Of a stretch of DNA of 64,000 nt, positions 22,691 to 56,584 are shown piece after piece. The first letter of the stretch is position 1; every line of letters begins with the position of its first letter. Below the pieces are notes generated by a model. The model saw only the letters and a program-made list of their open reading frames with translations. It searched no databases and was not told the origin of the DNA. A program made the position numbers and the translations under genes. The stretch is from the NCBI GenBank assembly GCA_049317725.1, contig JBMOHS010000001.1, positions 352-64,351 on the forward strand, given 5' to 3'. This DNA comes from Blastocatellia bacterium (GTDB lineage: Bacteria > Acidobacteriota > Blastocatellia > RBC074).

Positions 22691-22692
22691 CG

Positions 22693-26380: not shown

Positions 26381-27590
26381 AATGAGCCGAGCCTACAGAG
26401 TCGATAGAGCCGACGCACGGATGGATCGGGAAGAAACACGGTTCTGGCGGAATTTCTGCTCGTGGCGATGGGGAGCAAACTTCTTCCTCGGCCTCGCGAT
26501 CCTTGCCGGTCAGGCCCTCGGGCAATCTGCAGCACCTCCCCTTGGGACGCCGGGAAGCACTGCCCCCACTTCTGGTGCCGCAGTGGCAGCCAAGGGTGGG
26601 ATCGAACGGATTCCGGATGCCTCCCCCCGCGAGGACGACAGCTATCGGATTGGCCCCGGGGATCTGCTCGACGTGCGGGTCTACGGGCGAGCCGAATTGA
26701 CACGGGAGGTGCGTGTCACCAATGAGGGACGAATCCGCCTGCCCTTCCTCGAGGAGGTCCAGGTCGCCTGCCAGACAGAGGCTCAACTCTCCGAAAAGAT
26801 TGCCACCCAGTACCGCAAGTATCTGCGTGATCCTCAGGTCGACGTCTTTGTCCGGGAGTACAAGAGCCAGCCCGTCTCGGTCATCGGATCGGTCATGCAG
26901 CCCGGCCGCTTTCAGTTGCAGCGTCGGGTTCGTCTTCTCGAACTGTTGACCTTCGCGGGAGGACCCGGGGGGAGCGCTGGCGGAGTCGTCCACGTCATCC
27001 GAGGGAGCGCGCCAGACTTCTGCGAGGCCCAAGTGGAGAAGGTCCAGGCGGTGCCCGCCGTCGCTCCAGTCGAGCCAACTCCTCGTTCGAGCGAGGTGGA
27101 CCAATCCCTTGCCGGCAGCCAAGCAACCATTCCCATTTCGATCGACCACGGAGATGCGCAGTTGGTCGCCTACCGACTGCGAGATGTGCTGGTCGGAAAC
27201 CCGGACTCGAACCCATTTGTCCGACCTGGTGACATCATCAGCGTTCCGGAGACTGACCAAGTCTTCATCACTGGCGCAGTCATCAAGCCCGGAGCGATTC
27301 CGATGCGCAGTCGATTGACGCTCCTCCAGGCCCTGGGGATCGCTGGAGGGTTTCAGCCCGATGCCGCCCGCTCGCGGGTCCGGGTAATCCGGCTCGATCC
27401 ACAGACCCGAACCAACCAGGAGATCGTCTACAACATCGACGAGATTCAGCGACGCAAGGCAGAGGATGTCGTGCTTCTCCCCAATGATGTGGTTCACGCC
27501 CCCTCCTCGATGCCGAAGAGTATGGGACGAGGAATCCTGGGGGTGAGTCTCAACATGCTGAGCACGATCCCCTTCCTGATCATGCGGTAA
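26381..27590 (+). CDS. wza: polysaccharide export outer-membrane protein Wza (Poly_export + SLBB domains)
   Basis: YRIGPGDLLDVRVYG...NEGRIRLPFL is the Poly_export motif. Two SLBB-like repeats (PGDIISVPE). First gene of the locus, after a 360-bp intergenic region. Confidence 0.85.
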
Positions 27591-27616
27591 CCGCGGAGCG
27601 AGAGAAAGAGATCGGC

Positions 27617-30004
<2,388 letters not shown>

Positions 30005-30219
30005 GGTCCTTCGGATTAGCCTCTCAGCGATTCTTCCCTTGCTCCGACTCCTCCGCGGGGGTAGGTCCATCTCCGGCTGGAGGGGCGAATGGAATCAGGG
30101 TGCTGCCTCGGCACGAGGTTTCCTTCAAGGTCTGACTTGTGAGGGAGAGCTGTGCCCAGTCGATTCAGGCCGCAGATCCAACGTGTGAAGAAGAGACCGT
30201 ACGTCGGGAGCAGAAACAG

Positions 30220-32142
30220 ATGTGTGGGATTGTCGGGGTCGCGACGAGGAGAGGACGGGAGGAGGCGATCGTCGCCGTCCAGCGGGGACTGCAGTCGCTG
30301 GGCCACCGGGGGCCTGACGACGAGGGCTGGGCCTTGATCAAAGACGGGAGTGAGGGCCAAGGAGGAGCGGGCTGGACGGTCTGCTTCGGCCATCGGCGTC
30401 TCTCGATCCTCGACCCGACGCCAGCGGGCCATCAACCGATGCAGGATGCCGCGAAAGGGGACTGGATCACTTACAACGGGGAGGTCTTCAACCATCAGCA
30501 CCTGCGGGAGACCCTCGTCACGCAAGGTGTGCGGTTTGACTCGCGAACCGACACGGAAGTGGTGCTGAAGTCCTTCGGGCGGGAGGGTGGGAGGGCGCTG
30601 CGGACTTGGCACGGGATGTTTGCCTTCGGGTTTTGGGAGGCAGCGGCCGAGCGGCTGAGCTTGGTACGGGATCGCCTGGGGATCAAGCCGCTCTACTACT
30701 ACCAGAGCGAGGAGCGCTTCGTCTTTGGGTCCGAGGTGCGGGCCTTGCTGGCGACTGGGCTTGTACCGCGTCGGCTCTCGGGCCGGGCGGTGGAGCAGTT
30801 CCTCGCCTACGGCTCGGTCGAGGCGCCGCTGACGATCGTCGAAGGGATCCAGGCAGTCCTGCCAGGTCAACAGGTCGAGTTTGTCCGGGGGGTGGTCCGG
30901 GCGGAGAGCTACTGGAAACCAATGCCGCACAGAGGGGAGCAGGCGGCCCCGGCAGACGCTTCCCTGGTTGAAGAGGTGCAGGACTTGGCCCTCGAAGCGG
31001 TGCGGCTCTGGCGAGTCTCCGACGTCCCGATCAGCCTCTTCCTCAGCGGTGGGATCGATTCGGGAGCGCTCCTGTCGCTGTTGCGGCAATCCTCCGACGA
31101 GCCGATTCACTCCTTCTGCTTGCGGTTTGAGGGAGAGGGGACAGACGAAGGAGCGGTTGCGGAGACGGTCGCCCGGCACTACGGCGCCGTCCATCGCACA
31201 GTCACACGGACGGAGGAGGAGGCGCGCACCCGGCTGAAGAGGGCGGTCGCGGCGCTCGACCAGCCCTCGATCGATGGGATCAACACGTGGTTTCTCTCGG
31301 AAGCGGTCAGCGAGGCTGGCTTCAAGGTGGCCCTGTCAGGCTTGGGGGGGGATGAGGGCTTTCTGGGATATGGGTTCTTCCAGACGCTGCGGCGCGACGA
31401 GCGGTGGCGCAGGCTTGGGGAGATGGTCCCAGGCGTGATCCGGGAGGTCCTTGCCGCGCTGCTGGTCCGGCTGCCTCTCGGACGCACCGCCAAGCTGGAG
31501 GCCCTGCTGCGGGGGGAGACCGCCGGGGTCCCAACGGTCCGCCTCCATCGCCAACTCTTCACGCCGACGCAGCGGCGGCACCTGCGCGGACAGGAAGGGA
31601 GTAGACCAGAAGCGATCAACTGGATCGACGATCTGGCGACGGGATGGGGTGAGACCGACCCGATCAATTTGGCGTCGGCCATCGAGATGAGCGGGTACCT
31701 GCCCAACACCCTGCTGCGCGACACCGACACGATGAGCATGGCCCACGGGCTGGAAGTCCGGGTTCCCTTCCTCGATCACCGGCTGATCGAACGGCTTCTC
31801 GAACTGCCGGGAAGGGTCAAATTGCGAACGGGATCGGCGAAGTGGCTGCTGGTCGCGGCGGCGGGAGACCTGCCAGAGATCGTCACGCAACGACGGAAGC
31901 AGGGGTTTGAACTCCCCTTCGATCGTTGGCTCCGAGGGGCGCTCCGGGAAGAGATGGTCGAGGCGCTCGCGTCGAAGACGTGGGAAGGGTGGCTCGATCG
32001 TCGGGCGGTGAACCAAGTCTGGGAAGGCTTTCTCGCGCAACGGCTGAGCTGGTCGCGTGTCTGGGCGCTCTATGTCCTCCGGGAATGGATCGAGCGCCAC
32101 CTCTCCCCTGGGCAGTCAGCAATCGAGGGACCCGTGAGATGA
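30220..32142 (+). CDS. asnB: asparagine synthetase B-family (glutamine-hydrolysing) amidotransferase, paralog 1
   Basis: N-terminal MCGIVG nucleophile Cys2. HRGPDD. PP-loop SLFLSGGIDS. Confidence 0.85.
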   Translation: MCGIVGVATRRGREEAIVAVQRGLQSLGHRGPDDEGWALIKDGSEGQGGAGWTVCFGHRRLSILDPTPAGHQPMQDAAKGDWITYNGEVFNHQHLRETLVTQGVRFDSRTDTEVVLKSFGREGGRALRTWHGMFAFGFWEAAAERLSLVRDRLGIKPLYYYQSEERFVFGSEVRALLATGLVPRRLSGRAVEQFLAYGSVEAPLTIVEGIQAVLPGQQVEFVRGVVRAESYWKPMPHRGEQAAPADASLVEEVQDLALEAVRLWRVSDVPISLFLSGGIDSGALLSLLRQSSDEPIHSFCLRFEGEGTDEGAVAETVARHYGAVHRTVTRTEEEARTRLKRAVAALDQPSIDGINTWFLSEAVSEAGFKVALSGLGGDEGFLGYGFFQTLRRDERWRRLGEMVPGVIREVLAALLVRLPLGRTAKLEALLRGETAGVPTVRLHRQLFTPTQRRHLRGQEGSRPEAINWIDDLATGWGETDPINLASAIEMSGYLPNTLLRDTDTMSMAHGLEVRVPFLDHRLIERLLELPGRVKLRTGSAKWLLVAAAGDLPEIVTQRRKQGFELPFDRWLRGALREEMVEALASKTWEGWLDRRAVNQVWEGFLAQRLSWSRVWALYVLREWIERHLSPGQSAIEGPVR

Positions 32143-32993
32143 GGATCCAACGTGTCGAGGAGAGCGCGAGCGGCCCACCGGACTTGGTGATTGAACCAAC
32201 CAGCGGCTGGCGGCAGCCATTGGCGCTGAGCGATCTGTGGCAGTACCGCGAACTCTTCTACTTTCTGACTTGGCGCGACATCAAGGTGCGGTACAAGCAG
32301 ACAGTGTTGGGCGCGGTCTGGGCACTGCTGCAGCCACTGGGGACGATGGCGCTCTTCGCGTGGATCTTCGGTCGGGTCGCACGACTGCCGTCGGACGGGC
32401 TGCCCTACCCGCTCTTCGCCTTTGCCGGGTTGATTCCATGGATCTTCTTCTCGAACGCGCTCGGGAGTGCGGGCAACAGCCTCGTCGGGAGTTCCCACCT
32501 CATCACCAAAGTCTATTTTCCACGGATTCTGATCCCAGCCTCGGCAGTCTTGGCCGGACTGGTCGACCTGGGAATCTCGATGGGAGCGCTGGGTGGGATG
32601 ATGGCCTGGTATGGCATCGCGCCAAGCTGGCGGCTGTTGATCTTGCCCCTGCTGATTGGACTGACGGTGCTGCTGGCGCTGGGCGTCGGCCTCTGGCTCT
32701 CGGCGCTCCACGTACGCTTCCGGGATATTCGGTACATCATCCCGTTCTTGCTGCAGATCTGGCTCTTCGCGACGCCGATCCTCTATCCGAGGAGCGTCGT
32801 GCCTGAACAGTACCAGTGGCTCAGCCAGATCAACCCGTTGAGCGGGTTGATCGAGGCCTACCGGGGGGTTCTGCTGGGGCTGCCCTTCAACTGGCGTGGG
32901 CTGGGGCTCGCAGCGGGAGGAACAATGGTGCTGCTGATTACCGCCGTCTACGGGTTTCGACGAATGGAGCGCACCTTCGCCGATCTGGTCTGA
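32139..32993 (+). CDS. wzm: ABC-2 type polysaccharide/O-antigen export permease Wzm
   Basis: ATGA start-stop overlap with asnB. About 6 TM helices. ABC-2 membrane signature (LTWRDIKVRYKQTVLGAVWALLQPL). Confidence 0.8.
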   Translation: MRIQRVEESASGPPDLVIEPTSGWRQPLALSDLWQYRELFYFLTWRDIKVRYKQTVLGAVWALLQPLGTMALFAWIFGRVARLPSDGLPYPLFAFAGLIPWIFFSNALGSAGNSLVGSSHLITKVYFPRILIPASAVLAGLVDLGISMGALGGMMAWYGIAPSWRLLILPLLIGLTVLLALGVGLWLSALHVRFRDIRYIIPFLLQIWLFATPILYPRSVVPEQYQWLSQINPLSGLIEAYRGVLLGLPFNWRGLGLAAGGTMVLLITAVYGFRRMERTFADLV

Positions 32994-33017
32994 AAGGCAC
33001 GTCCAAGGAGAAGAGAA

Positions 33018-34276
<1,259 letters not shown>

Positions 34277-34292
<16 letters not shown>

Positions 34293-41302: not shown

Positions 41303-43006
41303 GTGGGAAGGAAGAGAGTGATCGGATTGCAGCAGGAGAGAAAAAGAGAGTGGTCGTGGTGGCGAGGGGTCTGCCTCCTGATCGGCTGGGGGATGCTTTG
41401 GGAAGGGTCCGGAAGGGCGCAGCTCGCCACTCCCGGAACCTCTGCCAAGAAAAAAGAGGACGTCCCGGCGGTCGTCCCGGCCATCCGTGAGAGTGCACGG
41501 ATGCCCATTCCACTTCGTGGCATCCGGCCATTGCCGTTGGCCGGCCACTGGAATCTCGGTGAGGGGAAGGGAGGCTATGATCCCTCGTATCAAGTGGAGC
41601 TGATCCGCCAGGGGCACCACCTGCTGCCCTGGTTCCTCATGCCCAACGCCTATGCCCAGCCGCAGGATCCGCGCTGGATTGGCTATTACCAGGAAGCCAT
41701 GCGGCAGATGGCGGCCTGGCAGTTGCCGATCTCGCTCGTCAGCACGCAGTGGGAGTCGATCCTGAGTTGGGAGGAGAGGTACTGGAACCTGCCGTGGGAA
41801 GAGAATCCCAATGTCATCACCGTCAGTGGGGAGCGTCGCCGGGAAGTCTCGCCCTTTGGACCCGTCGATCCCTGGCGATCGGCAGGGGAGTGGTGGGGCA
41901 GCGGTGCGATGATCAAGCAGCTCCAGGCTTGGTATCCCAACCCACCACTGGTTCTCTTCGTCTCGAATCACGAGCATGCCCGCCTGGACTGGACAAAGGT
42001 CAGGGAGGACCGCCACTACCTCAAAAACTACGCGAGTCTCCAAGATCCGGACTCGATCCGGAGATTGGTCGGGAATCAATGGATCGAGCGCTACCGCGCG
42101 CTCCAGCAAGGGATTACCGACGGGTTGATCAGCTCCACTTGGAGGGAGCGGGCACGCTATGTGGGCTATGACGCCTTTGGGCCAGCCCATTTCGCACGAT
42201 GGCCTGGCTGGGTGGAGTACTCTCTCTACGCGGCTCATCGATTCTCACCGTGGACCTTCGCCTGGGACGGAGCCTCGCCCTCGTACTACCTCTTCAATTG
42301 GAGCGGAATCACCGACTTCACCGTCTACAGCCCCCAGATTGAGGCGATGAATTGGGTCTTCATGCTGGAGGAGACCTATCGCCAAAACCCTTCGTTCTGG
42401 TTTGAACTCTCGACGTGGGATGGGTACGAACCTGAGATGGCCAATGACAAGCGGAAGTTCTACGAACGGATTGGCCAGCGCTTCACACCGGCGCGATATG
42501 AGGGGATGATCCAGTTTGGGATGTGGCTCTTGCGTCCGCGGGTCGTCCGGGAGTTCCGCGGCTATCTGCAGACCGTGGCGGAGACGGGGGACTACTTTGC
42601 GGCGGTGCTCTCGGCGGTCGACCGGGTGCACCACCATCCCGAGCTGCGCAATTTTTGGGAGCAGAGTGACCTCGTCATCAACCGCACGGGAACCCATCCC
42701 TACCAAGTCAACGTCCCAATCGAGTATCTCGCACGCCCGCGCTGGTTTCTGCTCTCGACGACGGTCCATCCTCCGCCCCCCTGGCAGCTCGACACGGTCC
42801 TCCCCGTCTATGCACTTGCCCGGGTGAGAGGGTGGCTGGGAAATCGCGAATGGCTCATCTACGCCCATGCCCCCATGGGACAGCGAAATGGCATCGGGAT
42901 CGAGCTGCCCGGATTTGGAACCGTCCGGGTCGACGTTCCCGTCGAAGGTACCTTTGTCCTGGTCAAGGAACAGACCCGAATGCAACAGGTAGTGGGTGCC
43001 AAATGA
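41303..43006 (+). CDS. secreted Trp-rich hypothetical protein, no recognised domain (candidate polymer-processing enzyme)
   Basis: 567 aa. N-terminal signal-like CLLIGWGMLWEGSGRAQLA. High W/Y content. Embedded between GT genes and translationally coupled to the downstream GT4 (ATGA). Confidence 0.55.
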   Translation: MGRKRVIGLQQERKREWSWWRGVCLLIGWGMLWEGSGRAQLATPGTSAKKKEDVPAVVPAIRESARMPIPLRGIRPLPLAGHWNLGEGKGGYDPSYQVELIRQGHHLLPWFLMPNAYAQPQDPRWIGYYQEAMRQMAAWQLPISLVSTQWESILSWEERYWNLPWEENPNVITVSGERRREVSPFGPVDPWRSAGEWWGSGAMIKQLQAWYPNPPLVLFVSNHEHARLDWTKVREDRHYLKNYASLQDPDSIRRLVGNQWIERYRALQQGITDGLISSTWRERARYVGYDAFGPAHFARWPGWVEYSLYAAHRFSPWTFAWDGASPSYYLFNWSGITDFTVYSPQIEAMNWVFMLEETYRQNPSFWFELSTWDGYEPEMANDKRKFYERIGQRFTPARYEGMIQFGMWLLRPRVVREFRGYLQTVAETGDYFAAVLSAVDRVHHHPELRNFWEQSDLVINRTGTHPYQVNVPIEYLARPRWFLLSTTVHPPPPWQLDTVLPVYALARVRGWLGNREWLIYAHAPMGQRNGIGIELPGFGTVRVDVPVEGTFVLVKEQTRMQQVVGAK

Positions 43007-44190
43007 GGCGGGTTCTGCTCTTCAACAATACGCCGGCTCCCTATTTGGTACCCCTCTTCGAGGAGCTGCGACGAAAGAGTGGCTGGCATCTGACACTCTG
43101 CTTTGCGAGCCGCTGGAATGCGGACACGGGATGGCGCAAGGGAGAGGTGGAGGCGGGGCTGTCCGAAGGACAGACCGTCCATCTCGACGAGCTGCCTGTT
43201 CCAGGAAGGCGCTGGCTGGGAGAGACCGTGTCAATCATCCTCGGGGTGCTCGGGGTGCTTGGGCGGGAACGACCGGACTATCTGGTGATCTACGGGTATA
43301 CACTCATCCCTCAAGTGACGCTGCTGATCTGGGCCATGCTGCGGAGAAGACCGTTCGCGGTGTTGGGAGATGCCAACATCCACGCCGACCGGGCAGGAGG
43401 AGTGCGACGTTGGCTGAAACGCCTCTGGCTGGGCTGGATCGTGCGACGCGCGGCGGTGATTCCAACGATTGGCAAGGCCAACCGGCAGTTCTGGTTGTCG
43501 TACGGAGCGCGAGCGGACGACTTGGCGGCGGTGCCCTTTTCGGTCGACAATGCGTCCTTGGCAAAGGGAGCAGCGCGGGCGAAGGAGGAGGCCGCACGGG
43601 AACGGGCCCGATTGGGGCTCTCGCGGGCCGTGATCTTTCTCTCAGTGGGTCGGCTGATCGCGCGGAAGAACTTGGCAACCTTGATCCGGGCCTTTCGGTC
43701 CGTCGAAGGGGTAGAGATGGGGCTCATCATCGTCGGAACGGGGGAAGAGAGGCCGGAACTGGAACGGCTGGCGACGGGAGATCCACGGATCCACTTCACC
43801 GGGGGAGTCGCCCCGGTCGACCTGCCCCGCTGGTATGCCCTGAGCGACGTGCTGGTTCTCATCTCCCGCGACGAGCCGTGGGGATTGGTCGTCAACGAGG
43901 CGATGGCCTGCGGGCTGGCAATTCTCGCCCACCAGCATTGTGGGGCAACACCCGACTTGGTCGATGACGAAAACGGGATCGTGCTCGAAGGGTTCGGAGA
44001 GCAAGAGGTTGCCGAGGCGTTGCGGAGACTGGCGACCGTGACGCCGGCGCACCTCCGCCAGATGCAGGAGCGGTCTCAAGAGAAGATCGCCGACTGGGGG
44101 ATCGAGGCGACCGCCAAGGGGCTGATCGAGGCGGTTGAGCGAACCCCCTTCGAGGAATCGAACACTCCAAATGGGAGAAAAGAGGCATGA
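43003..44190 (+). CDS. glycosyltransferase family 4
   Basis: C-terminal LVLISRDEPWGLVVNEAMACGLAIL (EX7E). GT-B N-terminal domain. Confidence 0.8.
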   Translation: MRRVLLFNNTPAPYLVPLFEELRRKSGWHLTLCFASRWNADTGWRKGEVEAGLSEGQTVHLDELPVPGRRWLGETVSIILGVLGVLGRERPDYLVIYGYTLIPQVTLLIWAMLRRRPFAVLGDANIHADRAGGVRRWLKRLWLGWIVRRAAVIPTIGKANRQFWLSYGARADDLAAVPFSVDNASLAKGAARAKEEAARERARLGLSRAVIFLSVGRLIARKNLATLIRAFRSVEGVEMGLIIVGTGEERPELERLATGDPRIHFTGGVAPVDLPRWYALSDVLVLISRDEPWGLVVNEAMACGLAILAHQHCGATPDLVDDENGIVLEGFGEQEVAEALRRLATVTPAHLRQMQERSQEKIADWGIEATAKGLIEAVERTPFEESNTPNGRKEA

Positions 44191-45539
44191 GCGCCGCCCC
44201 CCTGATGTTGGCCATCATCGTCGCCTTCCTCTGGCTGCTGCTGCGGCGCTGGCGCGATCCCTTCCTCCGGGCCTACGGGCTCTTCTTCCTCGTCCTGCTT
44301 ATCTTTGCCTCGAACAAAGAGGGCTACGGGATCAGCAGTGCCTGGACGGAGGCGACCTTCAGTCCATTGAGCCTGCTGCGATGGATCCTGCTGGGGTGGC
44401 TGGTCTGGCAAGCGTGGCGATTGCCCCGACCAGAGGGCTTCCAAGTCAACCTTCCCATCGCCAGTGTCGTCGTGCTCCTCCTGGTCTTCATCCTCCTTTC
44501 CGGATTCTACGCGACGGACCGCGGGTATTCCTTGATGCGGGGCCTCAGTTTTGCCTTGCTCGCCTTCGCACTGATCAAAGGGCTTGGGCCATATCTGTAC
44601 CAGTGCACGCACTGTCTGCTCTTCTTCCGCTTTCATTACGCGGCGGCCTGGATTGTGCTTGCCCCTTTTCTGCTGCTGCACGCGACAGGAACAGGGTATG
44701 GCGTGACGATCATCATGGGTCAATATGCGGGATTCTTTGGCAATCAGAACGCGATTGGAGCCATCTCGGCGCTCTTGACCCCCTTTGTCCTCTTTCATTG
44801 GCAAGTGTTGGCGAAGCGGCGCTGGCAGCGACTGGCAGATTTGGCACTGATCGGGATGATGCTCGTCGGCGTCTGGCTCTCTGGATCGCGCAATGGGACC
44901 GCCTCGACCCTGGTGGCGATGACGGCCTATTTTTTCATCGTCAATCTGCAGAGTCGGTTGAAGATCGTCGCCGCCGGGGTGCTGCTGCTCCTCCTCTTCG
45001 GCTTCTTTCCGACCCTGCAGCAGGATGTCACCCGCTTCATCCGTAAAGGGACGGACCGGACAGTCGAGATTCGCGACTTTCGTTCGCAATTGACCGAAGA
45101 GCGTCGCTACGAGATGTGGAGCGGAGTCTGGCCAAAGTTCTGGGCGCAGAGCCTGACGGGGTACGGATTTGCGCAATCCCACCTCCTCGTCTACGAGTTT
45201 ACGGAAGATCGAGAATCGGGACGTTCGCTCCACAACAGCTACCTGGAAGTCTTCGGCGATCTGGGGCTTCCTGGAATTACCCTGCTCTTGCTGTTGTTGG
45301 CGTTCGTCGGGGGAGAGTGCCTGGGGGTGATCACAGGGGGCAGAGGACTCTTCGAACGACAGATTGCCGCGGTCTTCATCTCGACCTTCGTCGCGGGCAG
45401 CTTCAACGCCTTCTTCGAGAGCTGGATGTTTTCGGTTGGCAATCTGCTCTCGCTGCTCTACTGGGCCTCAGTCGCCGGAGTGATCGCGCAGACGACTTGG
45501 CAGCCGGTCAGTCGCTGGCAGTTGAATCCGGCACGATAG
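44187..45539 (+). CDS. Wzy_C-family O-antigen polymerase/ligase-like membrane protein
   Basis: About 10-12 TM helices. Wzy_C-like SLHNSYLEVFGDLGLPG. ATGA overlap with the upstream GT4. Confidence 0.7.
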   Translation: MSAAPLMLAIIVAFLWLLLRRWRDPFLRAYGLFFLVLLIFASNKEGYGISSAWTEATFSPLSLLRWILLGWLVWQAWRLPRPEGFQVNLPIASVVVLLLVFILLSGFYATDRGYSLMRGLSFALLAFALIKGLGPYLYQCTHCLLFFRFHYAAAWIVLAPFLLLHATGTGYGVTIIMGQYAGFFGNQNAIGAISALLTPFVLFHWQVLAKRRWQRLADLALIGMMLVGVWLSGSRNGTASTLVAMTAYFFIVNLQSRLKIVAAGVLLLLLFGFFPTLQQDVTRFIRKGTDRTVEIRDFRSQLTEERRYEMWSGVWPKFWAQSLTGYGFAQSHLLVYEFTEDRESGRSLHNSYLEVFGDLGLPGITLLLLLLAFVGGECLGVITGGRGLFERQIAAVFISTFVAGSFNAFFESWMFSVGNLLSLLYWASVAGVIAQTTWQPVSRWQLNPAR

Positions 45540-47765: not shown

Positions 47766-49715
47766 ATGTGCGGCATTTGCGGGCTGGTCGGTCACGACAA
47801 TCTGGACGTCATCACGGGGATGACGGCGCGGCTCACCCACCGGGGACCGGACGATGGGGGGGAGTTCCGTGACCGGGAGGCGAGGGTGGCGCTCGGCCAT
47901 CGCCGGTTGAGCATTCTCGATCGTTCGCCGCTGGGGCGGCAACCGATGAGCAGCGAGGATGGCCAACTACACCTGACCTTCAACGGAGAGATCTACAATT
48001 ACCTTACGCTGCGCGACGGACTCGATCCGGCCCGCCATCGCTTCCACTCTGGAACCGATACGGAGGTGATCCTCCGGCTCTACGAAGAGCGAGGGAGGGC
48101 GGCCTTCCCGGCCCTCGACGGGATGTTCGCCTTCGCGCTCTACGATGCACGAGAGGGCCGGCTGCACCTGGTCCGGGATCCCCTCGGGATCAAGCCGCTC
48201 TACTATGCGGCGATGCCAGGAAAGCTCCTCTTCGGATCAGAGATCAAATGCCTGCTCGCTTCGGGGGCCTATCAGGCAGAGATTGAGTGGCAATCGGTCC
48301 ACGACTTCTTCTCCTACCTCTACGTGCCTTCGCCGCGGACGATGTTCGCGGGGATCGAGCAGTTACTCCCCGGACATTCGCTGGAGTACGACGTGCGTCG
48401 ACGCGAGGTGGTACGGATCGAACGCTTCTGGGATCCGTGGCGGGGACGAGAAAAGACGGTCGATTACGAGCGGAGCCCGGCCGAGTGGCAGCGCGAGATT
48501 CGTGCGACGCTCAGCGCGGCGGTCGATCGACAGCGGATGGGGGACGTGCCGGTCGGGGCCTTTCTCTCAGGGGGAGTCGACTCGAACGTCCTGGTTGGGC
48601 TGATGGCGGAGCAGTCGACGACGCCGGTGCGCACCTTCACGATGCGCTTCGACGAGCCGGGCCTCGACTACTACGATGAGCGGGACGAGGCACGGCGAAT
48701 CGCGACCCGTTTCGGAACGGACCACCACGAAATCTCCGTCGACCTCTCCCACCCGGAGGAGATGCTCGACCTCGTTGAGTATTTCGATCAGCCCTTCGGG
48801 AACACGACCTTCTACTTGACGTGGCTGCTCTCACGCGAAACACGGCGGGAAGTCACCGTTGCCCTCTCCGGGGTCGGCGGAGACGAGCTCTTTGGCGGCT
48901 ATCCGCGCTACCGGGCGGTGCAGGCGATGCGTTGGCTGCGGTGGATTCCTCCATCGCTCGGCCAGGCAGGGGTCGGGCTGCTGCGCCCCTTCCGGGACCA
49001 CTTTGGCAATCGACGGCTGCATCGGATCCGCGCGCTGCTGGGCGGGCTCGATCCCGATCCAGCCGAGCAATACCTGCGTTGGGTCTACTACCTCGACGAG
49101 GGGCGCAAGGCGGAGCTGCTCCTGCCCCGCAGCGGGGGGAAGAGCCCGCTCCGGTCCTCACGGGTCTTGGCGGAACGGCTCGCCGAGATGCCGGCCGGGT
49201 GGCAGAAGCGGGAGGCCGGTAATCGATTCTCCTGGCTCGATGTCGAGACCTTTCTGCCGGACAACCTCTTGGCCTACACCGATCGCATGAGTATGGCGTG
49301 GGGGCTGGAGGTGCGCGTCCCCTTTCTCGATCAATCCTTGGTCGAGCTGGCCTTTGCCATTCCCTTCTCCCTCAAGCAGAACCGGCGGGGGAGCAAATGG
49401 ATTCTGCGGGAGGCCTTCGACGACCTGATTCCCGAAGCCAATCGACACGTCCCGAAGAAGGGATTCAATCTGCCCCTCGGCCACTGGATGCGCACGCGGT
49501 TCGATCGGTTCTTCGAGTCACGGCTGCCGCGGGCCTACGTCGAGCGGGAGGGGATCTTCCGGTATGACGCAATCCAGCGGATGCGGGAGGAGCATCGACG
49601 CGGGCTCCGCGACAACGGCTACGAACTCTTCGCGCTGTTGATCTTCGACACGTGGTATCGGAAGTACCTCACCGGAACCGAGCCGATGGTGGGAGGGGAG
49701 CACGGCAGCAGATGA
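47766..49715 (+). CDS. asparagine synthetase B-family amidotransferase, paralog 2 (WbpS-like)
   Basis: MCGICGL Cys2 nucleophile. HRGPDD. PP-loop AFLSGGVDSN. Confidence 0.85.
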   Translation: MCGICGLVGHDNLDVITGMTARLTHRGPDDGGEFRDREARVALGHRRLSILDRSPLGRQPMSSEDGQLHLTFNGEIYNYLTLRDGLDPARHRFHSGTDTEVILRLYEERGRAAFPALDGMFAFALYDAREGRLHLVRDPLGIKPLYYAAMPGKLLFGSEIKCLLASGAYQAEIEWQSVHDFFSYLYVPSPRTMFAGIEQLLPGHSLEYDVRRREVVRIERFWDPWRGREKTVDYERSPAEWQREIRATLSAAVDRQRMGDVPVGAFLSGGVDSNVLVGLMAEQSTTPVRTFTMRFDEPGLDYYDERDEARRIATRFGTDHHEISVDLSHPEEMLDLVEYFDQPFGNTTFYLTWLLSRETRREVTVALSGVGGDELFGGYPRYRAVQAMRWLRWIPPSLGQAGVGLLRPFRDHFGNRRLHRIRALLGGLDPDPAEQYLRWVYYLDEGRKAELLLPRSGGKSPLRSSRVLAERLAEMPAGWQKREAGNRFSWLDVETFLPDNLLAYTDRMSMAWGLEVRVPFLDQSLVELAFAIPFSLKQNRRGSKWILREAFDDLIPEANRHVPKKGFNLPLGHWMRTRFDRFFESRLPRAYVEREGIFRYDAIQRMREEHRRGLRDNGYELFALLIFDTWYRKYLTGTEPMVGGEHGSR

Positions 49716-51892
49716 AACAGGTCATCCAGCATTTTCGGACAGGGGAGTTGCGGGTCGAAGAGGTCCCAGAGGCGAGCTCACGGCGCGGCGGAGTTCTCGT
49801 CAGCAATGTTGCCTCACTGATCAGCCCTGGGACAGAGAAGATGGCGGTCGAGCTGGCCCGGAAATCCCTGCTCGGCAAGGCGCGGGAGCGCCCGGACCTG
49901 GTCCGGCAAGTCCTCCGCAAATGGCGACGGGACGGGTTGGCCAGTACCTTCCGGACGGTCCGCACGAAACTCGAGACGAGCTTGGCCCCAGGGTACAGTT
50001 GCGCCGGGATCGTGCGCGGCGTCGGGGCAGGAGCCGAGGAGTTTCAGGTCGGCGATCGGGTCGCCTGTGCCGGCTACAACTACGCCTCGCACGCCGAGCG
50101 GGTCTTCGTGCCAAAGAATCTGGCGGTGCGGATCCCGGACGGAGTCAGCTTCGAGGAGGCCGCCTTCGTCACGCTCGGAGCGATCGCCGTTCAGGGCGTG
50201 CGGACAGCCGGGGTCGGATTGGGAGAGACGGTCGCGGTCATCGGGTTGGGTTTGATTGGACAACTGACCGTGCAGATCCTGCGGGCCGCCGGCTGCCGGG
50301 TGCTGGCGATCGATCTCGATCGGGAGCGGGTTGAGCTTGCTCTCCGGTTGGGAGCGGAGACTGGGTGCACTCGCCACGACCCACAGCTGACCGAGGTCTG
50401 CGACCGCCTCACCCAAGGGCGCGGCGTCGACGCGGTCATCATCACGGCGGCGGGCCCGACGAACGACCCGATCGAACTGGCCGCCGCCTTGGCCCGGGAC
50501 CGGGCCGTCCTCTCTCTCGTCGGGGCAGTTGGAATGAACCTGCCCCGCCGCCCCTTCTTCGAGAAGGAGCTGCAGGTGAGGCTCTCGCGATCCTATGGCC
50601 CGGGCCGCTACGATCCTCGCTACGAGGAGCAAGGAATCGACTACCCGATCGGGTACGTCCGCTGGACGGAGCGCCGCAACATGGAGGCGTTTCTGCGGCT
50701 GGTCGCGGAGAAGCGGATCGAACTGGTACCGCTGATCACCCACCGCTTCGCGATTGACGAGGCCGTCGCGGCCTACCAGATCGTCACTGGCCAACCGGCG
50801 ACGCCCCACTTGGCCATTCTGCTGCAGTACCCGGAGCGCGACACAGATTCCCCCCCTTCGGTTCGCCGTCCAGCAACGGGGGTTGGCACTGAAGGGACGA
50901 TCGGGATCGGGCTGATCGGGGCTGGCAACTTTGCGCGAAGTGTCCTTCTCCCCCGGCTGGTCCGCCAACTGGACACCAGCAACGCGCAGATTCTCGGGGT
51001 GGCCACGGCGAATGGGCGCACCGCCAAGTCGGTTGCCGCCGAGTATCGTGTGCCCTTCGGCACCACCGATTACCGGGCCCTCCTCGCCGATGAAGCGATT
51101 CGGGCGGTGATCATCACGACTCGCCACGACACGCACGCCACGATCGCTGCGGAGGCCCTTCGCGCCGGCAAAGCGGTCTTTGTCGAGAAGCCGCTGGCAA
51201 TTCGGGAAGCGGAGCTGAGAGACCTTGAGGCGGCGATGGAGGAGACGGGGGGGCGCGTGATGGTCGGATTCAATCGACGCTTCTCGCCCTTCTCGATCGA
51301 GCTGCGCCAGTTCTTCGACGGGAGAGGACCACTGGTGATCACCTATCGGGTCAATGCCGGCCCGCTGCCCCCGGAGAGCTGGATTCACGGAGAGGAGGGG
51401 GGCGGTCGGATTCTCGGCGAGGTCTGCCACTTTCTCGACTTTCTGCAGTTCCTCACCGCGGCCGAGCCGATCGAAATCTACGCGATCCCCACGACTGCCC
51501 CAACGGGAGCAGGGAGTGGGTCGAGCCCGGAGACAGTCGTCGTGCAGACCCGCTGGAGCGATGGTTCGATCGGGACGATCGAGTACCTTGCTACCGGCGA
51601 CCGCGGGCTCGCCAAGGAACGGATCGAAGTCCACGGAGGGGGACGGAGCGCCATCCTCGACGACTTTCGTGGGCTGGAATGCTGGGCCGATGGGAGGCGA
51701 CGACGCCATCGCGCCTTCCAGCAGCGGAAGGGGTTCGACGAAGAGATCACCGCCTTCCTGACGGCACTCCGCAGTGGGGAAGAATTTCCAGTTTCCTGGA
51801 CGAGTCTGGTCCAGACGACCCGGGCGACCCTGGCGATTGAGGAGTCGATCCGAGTGGGCCACCCGATTCAACCTCCCCGGGGGCGAGTGTGA
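49712..51892 (+). CDS. bi-domain oxidoreductase (N-terminal MDR/zinc-type alcohol dehydrogenase fold fused to C-terminal Gfo/Idh/MocA fold)
   Basis: N-terminal half has the MDR Rossmann motif VAVIGLGLIGQL. C-terminal half has IGIGLIGAGNFA and EKP (VFVEKPLA) motifs of Gfo/Idh/MocA. ATGA overlap with asnB2. Confidence 0.8.
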   Translation: MKQVIQHFRTGELRVEEVPEASSRRGGVLVSNVASLISPGTEKMAVELARKSLLGKARERPDLVRQVLRKWRRDGLASTFRTVRTKLETSLAPGYSCAGIVRGVGAGAEEFQVGDRVACAGYNYASHAERVFVPKNLAVRIPDGVSFEEAAFVTLGAIAVQGVRTAGVGLGETVAVIGLGLIGQLTVQILRAAGCRVLAIDLDRERVELALRLGAETGCTRHDPQLTEVCDRLTQGRGVDAVIITAAGPTNDPIELAAALARDRAVLSLVGAVGMNLPRRPFFEKELQVRLSRSYGPGRYDPRYEEQGIDYPIGYVRWTERRNMEAFLRLVAEKRIELVPLITHRFAIDEAVAAYQIVTGQPATPHLAILLQYPERDTDSPPSVRRPATGVGTEGTIGIGLIGAGNFARSVLLPRLVRQLDTSNAQILGVATANGRTAKSVAAEYRVPFGTTDYRALLADEAIRAVIITTRHDTHATIAAEALRAGKAVFVEKPLAIREAELRDLEAAMEETGGRVMVGFNRRFSPFSIELRQFFDGRGPLVITYRVNAGPLPPESWIHGEEGGGRILGEVCHFLDFLQFLTAAEPIEIYAIPTTAPTGAGSGSSPETVVVQTRWSDGSIGTIEYLATGDRGLAKERIEVHGGGRSAILDDFRGLECWADGRRRRHRAFQQRKGFDEEITAFLTALRSGEEFPVSWTSLVQTTRATLAIEESIRVGHPIQPPRGRV

Positions 51893-53781
51893 AGAGCCAT
51901 CCTACCTCTGCCACCCCTGTCGGTCCACTGAGAATGCCGCTGCTGATCTGGCGAACGCTAGCGCCCTTGCGGTGGGAGCAGCTCGTCTATCGGCCGTGGC
52001 GAGTGGCGGAGAAGCGGCTCTACCGGCACGTGCCTGTTCTTGCCGAGCGCTGGCGACGGGTCACCAAACCGGGCCCACCCGTGGATCGCGCCGGACTGGA
52101 AGCGATCCAGGGGTTGTTGCGAGAGGAAGGGGCAGCCCACCTTCTCCCCGCTCCAGATGCCGCACTCGTCGAGGAGTGGGAAGACTTCCGGGCAGGGCGC
52201 TTCACCTTTCTGGGGCGGTCACGGACACTGCCATCCCCGGACTGGAACGCGCGCTATGAGAGCCACCTCTGGAACTACCAACTGCACTACTTTGGCTGGA
52301 CGCTCGACTGCGTGCGCCAACGGGTCGAGACGGGTACCAAAGAGCCCCTTGAGCGATGCCAGAGGCTGATCGAGCAATGGATTGACGAGGCGTGCCCCGG
52401 CCGGAGTGATGGGTGGGACGCCTATCCGCTCTCGCTGCGGGTCGTCCATTGGATCTACGGGTATTGCCTGCTGGCGGGCATCGAGTCGACGGCGAATCCA
52501 CCGTTGCCCGCCTCCTTCCTGGAGCGGTGGCGTGGATCGATGCATCGGCAACTGGCCTTCCTCTCGGGCCACCTCGAGTACCACTTGCTGGCCAACCACC
52601 TCTTCAAGAATGCCAAGGCACTGGTCATCGGAGGGGTCTTCTTTGGCAAGCGGCGCTGGCTGGCGCAGGGGCTCCGGCTGCTCTGGCGCGAAGTGGAGGA
52701 GCAGGTCCTGCCCGATGGCGGCCACTTCGAGCGGGCGCCGATGTACCACGCGCAGACCCTCGGGGATCTGCTCGAATGTGTCGCGGTGTTGCGGCGGATC
52801 GGTGAGCCGATCCCCCCCGAGATCGCGACGCGACTCTCCACCATGGTCGCCTTTCTCGATGCAGTGCGCGACCAGACGGGAGACCGGCTCGCCGCCTTCA
52901 ATGACACGGCAGCGACACGGGAGACTCGCCCGGGTCCCCTCCTTGAGACTGCACGAAGAATGGGTCTCCCGGTCCCCGCTCCCTGCCCGCCCAGCCAAGG
53001 GATGGCGCGGCAGTTTCCCGAAACAGGATACCACCTCTGGATCCGTTCTGACGCAAGTGGGCAGATGACGGAAAAGATCATCGTCGACACGGGTCCTCCC
53101 TCCGTCTCCTACAACACGGCCCACGCGCACTGCGACCTGCTCAGCTTCGAGCTGCACCTCGACGGCCATCTTTGGATCGCCGACACGGGCGTACACGGTT
53201 ACGGCGGTGACCCGTTTCGCGCCTATTGCCGCTCGACGCGGGCCCACAATACCCTCACCATCGATGGACAGGAGCAGTCGGAGATCTGGGGGATCTTCCG
53301 GATGGGACGGCAGGCCGAGCCACTCGACGCCACTTCACAAGGGGCAGCGGACGAGTGGACGTGTCTGGCCACCTATCGTCCCGGGCTCCCTCCCCACCTC
53401 TGCCACCAACGCCGGTTTCGACGCGCCCCGGATGGGAGCTGGACGATCGAAGACCGGATTCTGGCTCCTTTCACGAAACGGCAAGGCTCACCGTCGAGCT
53501 GGCAGGTTGAGAGCTTTCTCCACCTGACACCCGAAATTTCTGTGGAACGGGAGGGAGCGGGGCCCGGCCTGCGCCTCTCGCAAGGCACCGTCCACTACCG
53601 ACTGCTCCCCTTCGGAGAGAGTCTGCCCGAAATAGTGATTCACCGGGCAGTCGAGGGGGCCCCAGAGGGATGGCTCTTTCCGGCGTTTGGGGTGGCCGTT
53701 CCCGGGACGATGCTGACATATTGCTGGTCCATCAGCGCAGACCAGCCCTTCGGATTCCGGCTGGTTCCTGAAGCACCTTGA
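51889..53781 (+). CDS. heparinase II/III-like family protein
   Basis: 630 aa. Alpha/alpha-toroid then beta-sandwich architecture. Conserved GGHFERAPMYH and HAHCDLLSFEL motifs typical of Hepar_II_III. GTG start overlapping the previous stop. Confidence 0.75.
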   Translation: MKSHPTSATPVGPLRMPLLIWRTLAPLRWEQLVYRPWRVAEKRLYRHVPVLAERWRRVTKPGPPVDRAGLEAIQGLLREEGAAHLLPAPDAALVEEWEDFRAGRFTFLGRSRTLPSPDWNARYESHLWNYQLHYFGWTLDCVRQRVETGTKEPLERCQRLIEQWIDEACPGRSDGWDAYPLSLRVVHWIYGYCLLAGIESTANPPLPASFLERWRGSMHRQLAFLSGHLEYHLLANHLFKNAKALVIGGVFFGKRRWLAQGLRLLWREVEEQVLPDGGHFERAPMYHAQTLGDLLECVAVLRRIGEPIPPEIATRLSTMVAFLDAVRDQTGDRLAAFNDTAATRETRPGPLLETARRMGLPVPAPCPPSQGMARQFPETGYHLWIRSDASGQMTEKIIVDTGPPSVSYNTAHAHCDLLSFELHLDGHLWIADTGVHGYGGDPFRAYCRSTRAHNTLTIDGQEQSEIWGIFRMGRQAEPLDATSQGAADEWTCLATYRPGLPPHLCHQRRFRRAPDGSWTIEDRILAPFTKRQGSPSSWQVESFLHLTPEISVEREGAGPGLRLSQGTVHYRLLPFGESLPEIVIHRAVEGAPEGWLFPAFGVAVPGTMLTYCWSISADQPFGFRLVPEAP

Positions 53782-53813
53782 CGAATCCGGGCTCTTCGCT
53801 GGATCCTTGCGGC

Positions 53814-55061
53814 ATGCGGATCACATTTCTCTGTCAGTATTTTCCGCCGGAGATGGGAGCGCCGGCGGCGCGGACGTGGGAGCACACCCGGGAGTGGGTC
53901 GCCCAGGGGCACGCCGTGACGGTCGTCACCGGCTTTCCCAACCATCCGACGGGGATCCTGCGCCCCGAGTATCGCGGACAGATCCTCGCGCGTGAATCCC
54001 CTGCGGGCGTCGATCTGCTGCGCACCTGGGTCTACTGCGCACCGAACAAGGGATTCTTTCGGCGGAGTCTCAATTTTCTCTCCTTCTTCGGATCGTCGCT
54101 GCTCTTCGGGGGGCTGTTGACGAAGCGACCTGACGTGGTCATCGGGACGTCGCCACAGTTCTTCTGTGCTGTCGCCGCCTACCTGTTGAGCTGTTGGAAG
54201 CGGGTGCCTTTCGTCTTCGAGGTTCGCGACATCTGGCCGCAATCGGCGATCGAGCTAGGAGCGATCCGGAATCCTCTGCTGATCCGGACCCTCGAAGCGA
54301 TGGAGGCACAGCTCTACCGTCGTGCTGCCCTGATCGTCATCGTCGCCGAATCGACACGCGCCTACCTGCGGGCAAAGGGGATCCCTCCCGAGAAGATAGC
54401 CCTGATTCCCAACGGGATCGATCAGCGATTTTTAACGGCAGCGACGCGACGGCCAGAGCAGATCCGGACCGAGCACGGATGGGAGGAGAAGTTCCTGGTG
54501 GGCTACATTGGCACGCACGGAATGTCGCACGCCCTCGGGAGCGTGCTCGACGCCGCCGAGCGGCTGCAAGACGATCCCACCTTCCATTTCCTCTTTATCG
54601 GGGAGGGAGCGGAGAAGGAGCGGTTGATGAGCCTCGCGGAAGAGCGCCAATTGACCAACGTCACCTTTCTCCCCGAGCAGCCTCGTGAAGAGCTGGCCGC
54701 CTTCTACAGAGCCTGCGACATCGGCTTGGTTCCGCTGCGGCGCCTTCCCATCTTCCAAAAAGTGCTTCCTTCAAAGCTCTTCGAATGGATGGGCGTCGGC
54801 CGTCCAATCGTTTGCAGTGTCGAAGGAGAAGCGGCACAATTGGTGGTGACTTCGGGTGGAGGGCAATGCATCGAGCCGGAATCGGCAGATGCCCTGGTCG
54901 ATGCCCTTCAGCGGCTACAACAAGATCCAACCCAACGAGCGGAGATGGGGAGAGCTGGGGAGGCCTTCGTCACCACCCGTTACACACGGGCTCACCTCGC
55001 CAGGGACTACCTCCGAGTGGTATGCGAACGTATCTCATCCTCTTCACCTGCTCGATCCTGA
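53814..55061 (+). CDS. glycosyltransferase family 4 (WcaI-like)
   Basis: MRITFLCQYFPPEMGAPAARTWEHTREW N-terminus. GT-B C-terminal domain (GYIGTHGMSHAL...). Confidence 0.8.
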   Translation: MRITFLCQYFPPEMGAPAARTWEHTREWVAQGHAVTVVTGFPNHPTGILRPEYRGQILARESPAGVDLLRTWVYCAPNKGFFRRSLNFLSFFGSSLLFGGLLTKRPDVVIGTSPQFFCAVAAYLLSCWKRVPFVFEVRDIWPQSAIELGAIRNPLLIRTLEAMEAQLYRRAALIVIVAESTRAYLRAKGIPPEKIALIPNGIDQRFLTAATRRPEQIRTEHGWEEKFLVGYIGTHGMSHALGSVLDAAERLQDDPTFHFLFIGEGAEKERLMSLAEERQLTNVTFLPEQPREELAAFYRACDIGLVPLRRLPIFQKVLPSKLFEWMGVGRPIVCSVEGEAAQLVVTSGGGQCIEPESADALVDALQRLQQDPTQRAEMGRAGEAFVTTRYTRAHLARDYLRVVCERISSSSPARS

Positions 55062-56584
55062 CGGCCTTACTGTTGACGCCGCTGGTGCGGCGGCGAGCGA
55101 TCGCCTGGGGGGCCATCGCCATCCCGGACCAGGGGCGCCACATCCACGCGCGACCGACACCACGGCTCGGCGGCATCGCCATCTACCTCGCCTTCCTGAC
55201 TGGGCTCGCCTTGGTTCCGCTCTCGGGCAATCTGGTCGCGGAGATCTTCAGTGCCAACCTGTCGCGCATCCTGGCGCTGCTGATCCCGGCGACGGGAATG
55301 ATGCTCTTCGGCGTCTATGACGACTTTCGGAGCGCGTCCGCCCCGCTCAAACTGGCCGTTCAGACGGTCGCGGCGACTGCACTCTTCGTCAGCGGCTTGC
55401 GGATCGAGGCGGTCTCCTCCCCGTTCGGGGGGCATTGGGATCTGCCGATCTGGTTGAGCTTTCTGGCGACCGCCTTCTGGGTGGCCCTCGTCACCAATGC
55501 CTTCAACCTGATCGATGGGATCGACGGACTGGCGTCGGGTGCCTCGATCTTTGCCTTCCTCTCGATTCTGATCTTCTCGATCGCCCAGGGCCACCCGGAG
55601 ATCAGCCTGCTGTCGGTCATTCTCATCGGCGCGATCATGGGATTCCTGCGCTACAACTTCAATCCCGCAACGATCTTCCTTGGCGATTCCGGGAGCCTCT
55701 TCCTCGGATTCATGGCGGCGGGACTCTCCCTGGCCGGGTCGCAGAAGGGCTCAACGATCGTGGCGATCGCCATTCCGCTCGTCTCCTTCGGACTGCCGCT
55801 GACGGAGGCGGGGCTCTCGCTCGTACGGCGCTTTTTGAGCGGGGCACCCCTCCTGGCGGGCGATCGGGGACACATTCACCACCGGCTGCTCGACCGGGGG
55901 CTGACCCAGCGACAAGTGGCGATCCTGCTCTACGGGGTCTGCGGGCTCTTCGCCCTCTTCGGGCTGATGCTCCTCAATCCGCAACGCAATCTGGGAGCGT
56001 TGATCTTCTTCGTGGTGGGAGTGGGCGTCATCTTCGGCGTGCAACATCTGCGCTATCCGGAGTTCAGTGAGCTGGGCCATCAGTTCCGACATCGAGTTCA
56101 TCGACGGCGGCGAGCCATCGCCGCCAATGTCCGGCTGCGAAGGGTCAGTGCCGATCTGGCGCGGGCTCGGGACCTCGATGAAGTCTTCGCGGCCCTCGCT
56201 CACCTGCAGGAGTCTGGAGAGTTCGACTGCGCGTGGATCGAGATTGATGACAGCCGCCGTCCAGCCTCGGGAATTTGGGGGGAGACAGCCGCCTGCCAGC
56301 CCTCCCTGTCGCCCGGCCGCACGATCCTCTGGTCCTGGGAAGATCGTCCGGGACGGGCCGGGGAGATGCGGGAATCCGCCTTCACGTGGTCACTGCGCCT
56401 GCCGCTCCGCCAGGGAGCAGATGGCCTTCTTGGAGAGGTGGTCTTCTGCCGGGATCTGCGGCGGGGGGCTGCCCATCTCGACCTCTCCGCCCTTTGCGAC
56501 CAACTCCCGGACGACCTGAGCCTCGCCCTCGAACGGCTCCTCCCCAGGAAGACCGATCCCGCCCCCTCCTCGCCTCACTCCTGA
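55022..56584 (+). CDS. polyprenyl-phosphate N-acetylhexosamine-1-phosphate transferase (WecA/MraY GT4-family initiating enzyme) with ~170-aa C-terminal extension
   Basis: MraY/WecA motifs: DD (GVYDDF), [32 protein letters not shown]-terminal region from ~56090 has no recognised domain. 40-bp overlap with the upstream GT4. Confidence 0.8.

Follow-up and report, generated by a model that had tools for sequence, protein, structure and literature searches.

A five-gene, AsnB-coupled and WecA-primed acidobacterial variant of a widespread surface-polysaccharide cassette whose function has so far only been postulated

WbpS of Pseudomonas aeruginosa O6, WbqG of Escherichia coli O121 and WbtH of Francisella are AsnB-like uronamide amidotransferases of O-antigen loci that make N-acetylhexosaminuronic acids (HexNAcA), the amidated sugars being D-GalNAcAN, the amide of N-acetylgalactosaminuronic acid (GalNAcA). 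WbpB/WlbA, members of the Gfo/Idh/MocA family, are 3-dehydrogenases of N-acetylglucosaminuronic acid linked to uridine diphosphate (UDP-GlcNAcA). The L-configured sugar, L-GalNAcA, is present in the O-antigens of P. aeruginosa PA14/O10/O19, is linked in PA14 to the initiating N-acetylquinovosamine (QuiNAc) and has been reported in an Acinetobacter capsule. Synthesis of UDP-L-GalNAcA has been postulated for gnlA/gnlB of the Acinetobacter baumannii K locus, homologues of WeeE/WeeF of A. venetianus RAG-1, and our literature search found no demonstrated enzyme for making L-configured HexNAcA. The exopolysaccharide (EPS) I of Ralstonia consists of N-acetylgalactosamine, GalNAcA and an acylated 2,4-diamino-2,4,6-trideoxyhexose, with RSp1012 and RSp1007 assigned to its acylations. 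Here, we describe five genes, g1-g5, in a 64,000-nt stretch of a Blastocatellia bacterium (contig JBMOHS010000001.1; the whole stretch, G+C ~63%, is referred to as the window). They are an AsnB-coupled, WecA-primed acidobacterial variant of a widespread cassette whose function has so far only been postulated. The genes are as follows.

47766-49715, + strand: g1, AsnB-type glutamine-dependent amidotransferase, 649 aa (GATase_7 3e-42, Asn_synthase 1e-91)
49712-51892, + strand: g2, fused medium-chain dehydrogenase/reductase (MDR) and Gfo/Idh/MocA oxidoreductase, 726 aa (ADH_zinc_N 3.7e-16, GFO_IDH_MocA 3.2e-25, GFO_IDH_MocA_C3)
51934-53781, + strand: g3, heparinase II/III-fold protein, 615 aa (Hepar_II_III_N 1.3e-12, Hepar_II_III_C 5.4e-37)
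53814-55061, + strand: g4, family 4 glycosyltransferase (GT4), WcaI-like, 415 aa (Glyco_trans_4_4 1.2e-23, Glycos_transf_1 1.4e-21)
55022-56584, + strand: g5, polyprenyl-phosphate HexNAc-1-phosphate transferase of the WecA/WbpL/MraY superfamily, 520 aa (PF00953 5.7e-41)

Conservation was scored with tblastn and iterated profiles in eighty loci, one genome per species, which were split by oxidoreductase clade; the clade of the window comprises 36 loci, and denominators vary by feature. In this clade, the heparinase-fold gene is adjacent to the oxidoreductase gene in 28 of 30 loci (12/35 in the other clades) and AsnB in 26 of 30 (6/36), while a GT4 gene follows in 28 of 29 (3/33) and a WecA-like gene in 23 of 25 (7/32). 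The two scored misses of the heparinase-fold gene are locus L001, a coordinate artefact in which the called genes show it abutting, and locus L036, where it lies at +0. The arrangement is far beyond chance, and the survey bears out the proposal of a preliminary description of this DNA of a conserved module. Some 30 acidobacterial (Blastocatellia-type) loci share the gene order AsnB, oxidoreductase, heparinase-fold protein, GT4 and WecA-like transferase. Two of the loci, L001 and L003, lie in complete acidobacterial genomes and share the longer run GT2 (family 2 glycosyltransferase), GT2, unknown protein, GT4, Wzy_C, GT4, GT2, AsnB, oxidoreductase, heparinase-fold protein and GT4; a PF00953 gene comes next in L001 and is absent from L003.

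The evolutionary core consists of the oxidoreductase, the heparinase-fold protein and the GT4. AsnB is an accessory, because it is adjacent in so few loci outside the clade of the window (the 6/36 given above) and the Ralstonia, Pseudomonas and Vibrio versions lack it. In a neighbour-joining tree, heparinase-linked oxidoreductases are found throughout, and unlinked ones form three derived subclades that still lie in polysaccharide loci. Paralogous oxidoreductase lineages with neither a heparinase-fold nor an AsnB gene within 10 kb account for L047-L058, L060, L064, L066 and L074-L076. Among these lineages, the Blastocatellia loci have a DsbD_N-domain protein, two unknown proteins and a Bac_transf initiator as neighbours of the oxidoreductase, and the Nitrospira loci have AAA_22/TPR and AAA_31 genes. 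Elsewhere, Nitrospirota too have the oxidoreductase and heparinase-fold genes side by side, and L059 from Sericytochromatia carries AsnB, oxidoreductase, heparinase-fold protein and GT4, with a UDP-sugar 6-dehydrogenase gene two genes further on. The nucleotide-sugar genes wecB/wecC, for synthesis of UDP-linked N-acetylmannosaminuronic acid (UDP-ManNAcA), lie near the pair in L012, which belongs to the clade of the window, and in L037, L043 and L062.

The cassette extends to well-studied bacteria. A protein search of plasmids placed the fused oxidoreductase on 132 Ralstonia megaplasmids. The annotated region, the EPS I operon of Ralstonia solanacearum, has epsP, epsB, epsC (UDP-GlcNAc 2-epimerase), wecC (UDP-ManNAc dehydrogenase), two transporter genes, a glycosyltransferase and an acyltransferase ahead of the oxidoreductase, ‘heparinase’ and GT4 genes, after which come genes for a sugar transferase, an acetyltransferase and an aminotransferase. 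From gene order, we infer that the trio following the LpxA-like acyltransferase RSp1012 is RSp1011/1010/1009. Its three proteins each match only g2, g3 and g4, respectively, in the window, and g4 is the sole GT4 of the window matched by the Ralstonia cassette GT4 (30% identity, 7e-44); identity of g4 to the Pseudomonas cassette GT4 is 31%. Database names of the Ralstonia proteins are all generic. From Ralstonia to Vibrio, the proteobacterial oxidoreductases are ~70% identical. In Pseudomonas, Vibrio and Geoalkalibacter, wecB, sometimes together with wecC, flanks the trio, and the Pseudomonas and Vibrio trios are succeeded by genes for a PglC-type initiator, a PglD-like acetyltransferase and a DegT aminotransferase. 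E. coli genomes gave no DNA match to the Vibrio cassette oxidoreductase.

Pfam and NCBIfam scans confirmed g1-g4 as four open reading frames (ORFs) on the forward strand with the coordinates and domains given in the preliminary description. The unit, described there as four genes, has five, since the WecA/WbpL-type g5 had been left out and overlaps g4 by 40 nt. Translational coupling, claimed for the whole series, is plausible at g1/g2, where the start of g2 (ATG 49712) forms an ATGA overlap with the g1 stop; g2/g3 and g3/g4 are most likely separated by gaps. Judged from homologue N-termini, g3 most likely starts at ATG 51934, 41 nt past the g2 stop; the alternative GTG 51889 gives a 4-nt overlap with g2 and a 630-aa product. 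For g4, the most likely start is ATG 53814, 32 nt past the g3 stop, because the NCBIfam WcaI-family profile starts at residue 13 of the long ORF, whose alternative start is TTG 53778. Given these two gaps, strict overlap is certain only at g1/g2 and g4/g5, where translational coupling is plausible. No promoter-like or convincing terminator-like site was found inside the g1-g5 block.

The fusion in g2 is judged to be genuine because >8000 homologous clusters share its length (~710-726 aa); the PGAP name for these homologues is only ‘bi-domain-containing oxidoreductase’. Membership of the second half in the Gfo/Idh/MocA family is indicated by PF01408 (3.2e-25), PF22725 (28.4 against a cut-off of 27) and alignment to inositol dehydrogenases. 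Its Rossmann motif GAGNFA and the EKP lysine are invariant and His573 is kept, while the UDP-GlcNAc 3-dehydrogenase model NF040723 matches at 1e-16, far under the model cut-off. In the MDR half, alignment to 1RJW revealed that the catalytic zinc ligands are gone (GHE to GYS, Cys148 to Thr/Leu) and that the structural-zinc lobe of ~25 residues is absent; a good score is confined to the cofactor-binding domain (ADH_zinc_N 59.7 bits). A zinc-dependent medium-chain alcohol dehydrogenase was considered for this half and rejected on the loss of ligands and lobe. A reductase role is therefore likelier than an alcohol dehydrogenase role, and the half appears nearer the reductase branch of the MDR superfamily. 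Residues 40-88 (49829-49975) are highly conserved in the family and lack a counterpart in solved MDR structures; AlphaFold2 (AF2), with low confidence, puts long helices into this GroES-like part of the MDR half. An ‘oxidised (uronic)’ role for the fused enzyme is doubtful in view of its zinc-less MDR half and of the separate UDP-HexNAc 6-dehydrogenase present in other loci.

Catalytic residues were looked for in g3, and those that act on uronates are retained. N221/Y271/H397, numbered from ATG 51934, align with Asn240/Tyr294/His424 of heparinase III, the neutralizer and base/acid of that lyase, and do not vary among 35 homologues. Across clades, the g3 family also keeps its N-H, Y(H) and AHNT motifs without change. 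The top structural matches are lyases, with dermatan-sulfate epimerase nearly as close. The protein combines the fold of polysaccharide lyase family 12 (PL12) and its catalytic Asn/Tyr/His set with a score of only 55 bits against the HepC equivalog model NF045573 (cut-off 700) and with no export signal. Neither a signal peptide nor a transmembrane (TM) segment was found in any of g1-g4, and the heparinase-fold protein always lies within polysaccharide loci, so the earlier view of it as biosynthetic rather than degradative is upheld and a secreted degradative heparinase was rejected for want of an export signal. We also considered g3 as a lyase whose 4,5-unsaturated uronate the zinc-less, enoyl-reductase-like MDR half would reduce to a 4-deoxy sugar; this idea was set aside because polymers from related loci carry O4-substituted GalNAcA. 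Epimerization after polymerization, which the preliminary description had raised as a possibility, is less likely. The protein is predicted to be cytoplasmic, is tied to one GT4 and an initiating transferase and elsewhere lies beside wecB/wecC, which argues for a monomer, linked to a nucleotide or a lipid, as its substrate.

The amidotransferase g1 passes the asparagine-synthase model TIGR01536 (435.8 bits, cut-off 267.1), and both its N-terminal MCGICG, with the Cys2 nucleophile, and its PP-loop SGGVDS are intact, which makes an amidated uronic sugar a reasonable prediction. The polymer first envisaged, with uronic and amidated sugars, is partly supported. The best NCBIfam match of g1 is TIGR03108, the XrtA/PEP-CTERM amidotransferase; this identity was rejected, with 474 bits against a cut-off of 817 and no exosortase in the locus. 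The glycosyltransferase g4 has Pfam GT4 domains and scores 193 bits with the PRK10307 WcaI family, under the cut-off of 276. PF00953 membership of g5 as a multi-TM protein agrees with its ~9 hydrophobic segments, and its score with the wecA equivalog TIGR02380 is 112 bits, under the cut-off of 326.

Taken together, domains, synteny, residues, the lack of export signals and the wecB/wecC link are observed, and on them we base a tentative reading, to which we give a little less than an even chance: a cytoplasmic pathway acting on a HexNAcA linked to UDP or undecaprenyl diphosphate (Und-PP) and yielding an amidated sugar of the L-GalNAcA(N) type. Its chemistry, order of steps and sugar identity are inferred. 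The Gfo/Idh/MocA half of g2 would oxidize a ring hydroxyl, most likely at C3, as WbpB/WlbA do on UDP-GlcNAcA, and the zinc-less MDR half would re-reduce the ketone from the opposite face, for a net epimerization. The Asn/Tyr/His set of g3 would then remove and return the C5 proton beside the carboxylate, inverting C5 through a carboxylate-stabilized carbanion, and g3 would thereby serve as a C5 epimerase, not a lyase. Epimerization of D-Man at C3 gives D-Alt, and epimerization of D-Alt at C5 gives L-Gal; two inversions could accordingly convert the UDP-linked D-configured N-acetylmannosaminuronic acid (UDP-D-ManNAcA), via its D-altro isomer (D-AltNAcA), into UDP-L-GalNAcA. AsnB (g1) would adenylate the carboxylate and turn C6 into an amide, g4 would attach the product to the Und-PP-HexNAc primer that g5 supplies, placing it second in the polymer, and the upstream glycosyltransferases would lengthen the chain. 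The position of L-GalNAcA on the initiating QuiNAc of the PA14 O-antigen and the function postulated for gnlA/gnlB count in favour of this scheme. By our own reasoning, a uronic acid might be decarboxylated on a 4-keto route, a risk that may account for the different solution.

Several observations weigh against this pathway. In about 20 loci, no heparinase-fold gene lies within 10 kb of the gene for the fused oxidoreductase, so the job of the oxidoreductase need not depend on g3. In two loci, from an Eisenbacteria metagenome-assembled genome (MAG; L077:3-4223) and a Spirochaetales MAG (L082:9875-14087), the oxidoreductase is directly followed by AsnB with no heparinase-fold gene nearby. Within g2, Gly569, adjoined by Glu570, takes the Asp position of the Gfo/Idh/MocA Asp-x3-His pair, and the AF2 model is poor in the MDR half (pLDDT 64). 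The heparinase-fold proteins fall into two subtypes, as revealed by aligning g3 with L084:16139-17974, L085:11142-12971 and L086:11418-12950. That of the window, Nitrospira, L059 and Geoalkalibacter keeps the His424 equivalent in the motif ‘AHxHxD’, while that of Ralstonia, Pseudomonas and Vibrio reads ‘RPSQAD’, with no histidine there; the two types may therefore not perform the same reaction. Pfam/NCBIfam scans and a similarity search found no wecB, wecC or UDP-sugar 6-dehydrogenase in the 64-kb window, which leaves the uronic precursor unproven for the source organism. Identity to the Ralstonia counterparts is only 40% (g2), ~25% (g3) and ~30% (g4). Three links to known polymers are our own assumptions: we take WeeE/WeeF to be a pair of the g2/g3 type, the cassette genes are presumably present in the PA14 O-antigen locus, and GalNAcA of EPS I is presumably the L form, for which no literature source was found.

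The timing and the chemistry of these steps could be otherwise. A polymer or long lipid-linked chain might be made first, after which the oxidoreductase would generate uronic residues, AsnB would amidate them and g3 would epimerize or trim within the chain. The Wzm/Wzt ABC exporter of the locus would allow a full chain to form in the cytoplasm, where g3 resides, DS-epi1 (the dermatan-sulfate epimerase that is the closest epimerase of the g3 fold) acts on polymers, and the window lacks a UDP-sugar 6-dehydrogenase. This order of events is nevertheless rather unlikely: the cassette is tied to one GT4 and an initiating transferase in every clade and sits beside wecB/wecC in other phyla, the Wzy_C protein of Vibrio and the flippase-type Polysacc_synt of Pseudomonas suggest extracytoplasmic polymerization beyond the reach of a cytoplasmic g3, and the MDR half is zinc-less. 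The last feature also bears on a scheme in which g2 itself makes the carboxylate by two C6 oxidations on a lipid-linked or nucleotide sugar, with AsnB as direct partner and g3 as an optional later epimerase. We consider it clearly improbable, because Ralstonia, Pseudomonas, Vibrio and L059 have a dedicated UDP-HexNAc 6-dehydrogenase alongside the fused enzyme, the zinc site of alcohol-oxidizing MDRs is missing and no thiol-type aldehyde dehydrogenase chemistry is evident, despite the oxidoreductase-AsnB pairs of L077 and L082, the window-type loci without wecC within 10 kb and the two NAD(P)-binding folds of g2.

Retention of the full lyase catalytic set, together with the lyases that head its structural matches, would suit g3 as a genuine lyase with a role like that of AlgL in alginate synthesis, setting chain length or removing misdirected polymer. 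Lyases with such a housekeeping role are periplasmic, however, and g3 has no signal peptide or TM segment; its HepC score is far under the cut-off, and the tight pairing with the oxidoreductase and the GT4 would be left unexplained, which makes a lyase very unlikely. The poorest prospect is that four independent tailoring enzymes without shared chemistry were merely co-inherited in one acidobacterial lineage. The whole 20-kb locus is indeed syntenic in the acidobacterial clade, where linkage could reflect vertical inheritance, but the trio keeps its order in Proteobacteria, Desulfuromonadota (Geoalkalibacter) and Sericytochromatia, and the pair its adjacency in Nitrospirota, all in otherwise different loci.

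The g1-g5 block is the operon-like 3' end of a ~30-kb surface-polysaccharide locus. Downstream of g5 lie convergent housekeeping genes (UDG, CoaBC, YicC and an ABC transporter), and the module therefore closes the locus, whose upstream part, from Pfam/NCBIfam scans, is as follows.

26229-47762, + strand: Wza, Wzc, second AsnB, Wzm/Wzt, ~8 GT2/GT4, unknown 567-aa protein, Wzy_C, GT4, GT2

The second AsnB-type amidotransferase (30220-32142, + strand), placed between the Wzc-like gene and the Wzm/Wzt pair, has intact MCGIVG and SGGIDS motifs and is 33% identical to g1; with it, two different amides may be products of the locus. This one locus brings together Wza/Wzc, a Wzm/Wzt ABC exporter that includes a Wzt_C domain, and a Wzy_C protein (26229-34292, 44187-45539). 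The 567-aa ORF (41303-43006, + strand) has a signal-peptide-like N-terminus and no Pfam/NCBIfam match, and a counterpart of ~533 aa stands at the same position in the syntenic loci L001 and L003. Upstream of Wza, two ORFs of ~450 aa each (22687-24039 and 24519-25895, + strand) also lack a Pfam/NCBIfam match. A multi-TM topology was confined, among the ORFs screened for hydrophobic segments, to the PF00953 and Wzy_C proteins, and no exosortase family match was obtained among the scanned locus ORFs of at least 250 aa. Further away are an 868-aa beta-helix protein with the Solibacter-type C-terminal domain TIGR03437 (15410-18016, + strand) and a single-domain ORF (18039-19085, - strand) resembling the Gfo/Idh/MocA half of the Ralstonia oxidoreductase. 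The Solibacter-type domain is a taxonomic marker and, together with the best homologues of the proteins, assigns the organism to Blastocatellia-type Acidobacteria.

The main value of the cassette lies in a very widespread pair of uncharacterized enzymes that is directly testable with a commercially accessible substrate. It is an obvious candidate for the synthesis of L-configured HexNAcA in important surface polymers, presumably including EPS I, the GalNAcA-containing wilt virulence factor of Ralstonia. More broadly, and as a possibility held with some reserve, a cytoplasmic C5 epimerase of lyase fold and a two-headed C3 epimerase could constitute a general, uncharacterized bacterial route to L-hexosaminuronic acids, with the acidobacterial AsnB giving the L-uronamide. 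If so, g3 would be the first lyase-fold epimerase to act on an activated monomer, and >8000 ‘bi-domain-containing oxidoreductase’ clusters would gain a function. The acidobacterial version indicates that the cassette can take on an amidotransferase, and the comparison with it brings out the two catalytic subtypes of the heparinase-fold partner. For soil Acidobacteria, the prediction is a charge-neutralized acidic amino sugar beside the reducing-end primer of a major exopolysaccharide. The two central enzymes had been called essentially undescribed. This applies to the enzymes themselves, for which we found no description in the literature under anything but generic names, nor biochemical data for any cassette member, but not to the cassette, which has homologous loci in well-studied bacteria and, in gnlA/gnlB, a postulated function.

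Each protein has a partial precedent in known systems. By description, g1 is like WbpS, WbqG and WbtH in joining a class II glutamine amidotransferase to an asparagine-synthase domain within a polysaccharide locus, and we know of no fused oxidoreductase or heparinase-fold partner in their loci. With WbpB/WlbA, g2 shares the Gfo/Idh/MocA fold, the EKP lysine and the catalytic histidine, but it differs in the fused zinc-less MDR domain and in having no aminotransferase next to it, so the ketone is presumably re-reduced rather than aminated. The alpha/alpha toroid, beta-sandwich and Asn/Tyr/His set of g3 recall PL12 heparinase III and human DS-epi1; in contrast to the first, a secreted degradative enzyme, and the second, which acts on polymers in the Golgi, g3 is predicted to be cytoplasmic, is 15-18% identical to them and belongs to a biosynthetic operon. 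The proposed route from ManNAcA makes the same net change as GDP-mannose 3,5-epimerase (GDP, guanosine diphosphate), which achieves it by another route.

Among whole loci, PEP-CTERM/XrtA systems offer a likeness in Nitrospira moscoviensis, where the oxidoreductase-heparinase pair directly precedes an exosortase EpsH/EpsI gene (L072:14115-16448, a fused exosortase EpsH and DUF3485 (EpsI)), with genes for a PF00953 transferase and a large TPR protein coming next; the window differs in having no exosortase-like multi-TM ORF among those scanned. The gnlA/gnlB genes are likened to g2/g3 by description: they are two adjacent genes whose product, an L-configured HexNAcA, is so by prediction only, and no AsnB is reported alongside. 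The wee gene order, we assume, parallels the Ralstonia operon. That operon differs from the window in lacking AsnB, in having wecB/wecC upstream and in using a PglC-type (Bac_transf) initiator where the window has one of WecA type; the heparinase-fold protein encoded there is of the subtype without the His424 equivalent, and GalNAcA of EPS I is unamidated. Geoalkalibacter, for its part, combines a Ralstonia-type oxidoreductase (72% identity) with a heparinase-fold protein of the window type. The Ralstonia oxidoreductase nevertheless aligns with g2 over the full length at the 40% identity given above, and Ralstonia EPS I and g2-g5 share the same order, the trio followed by an initiating sugar transferase.

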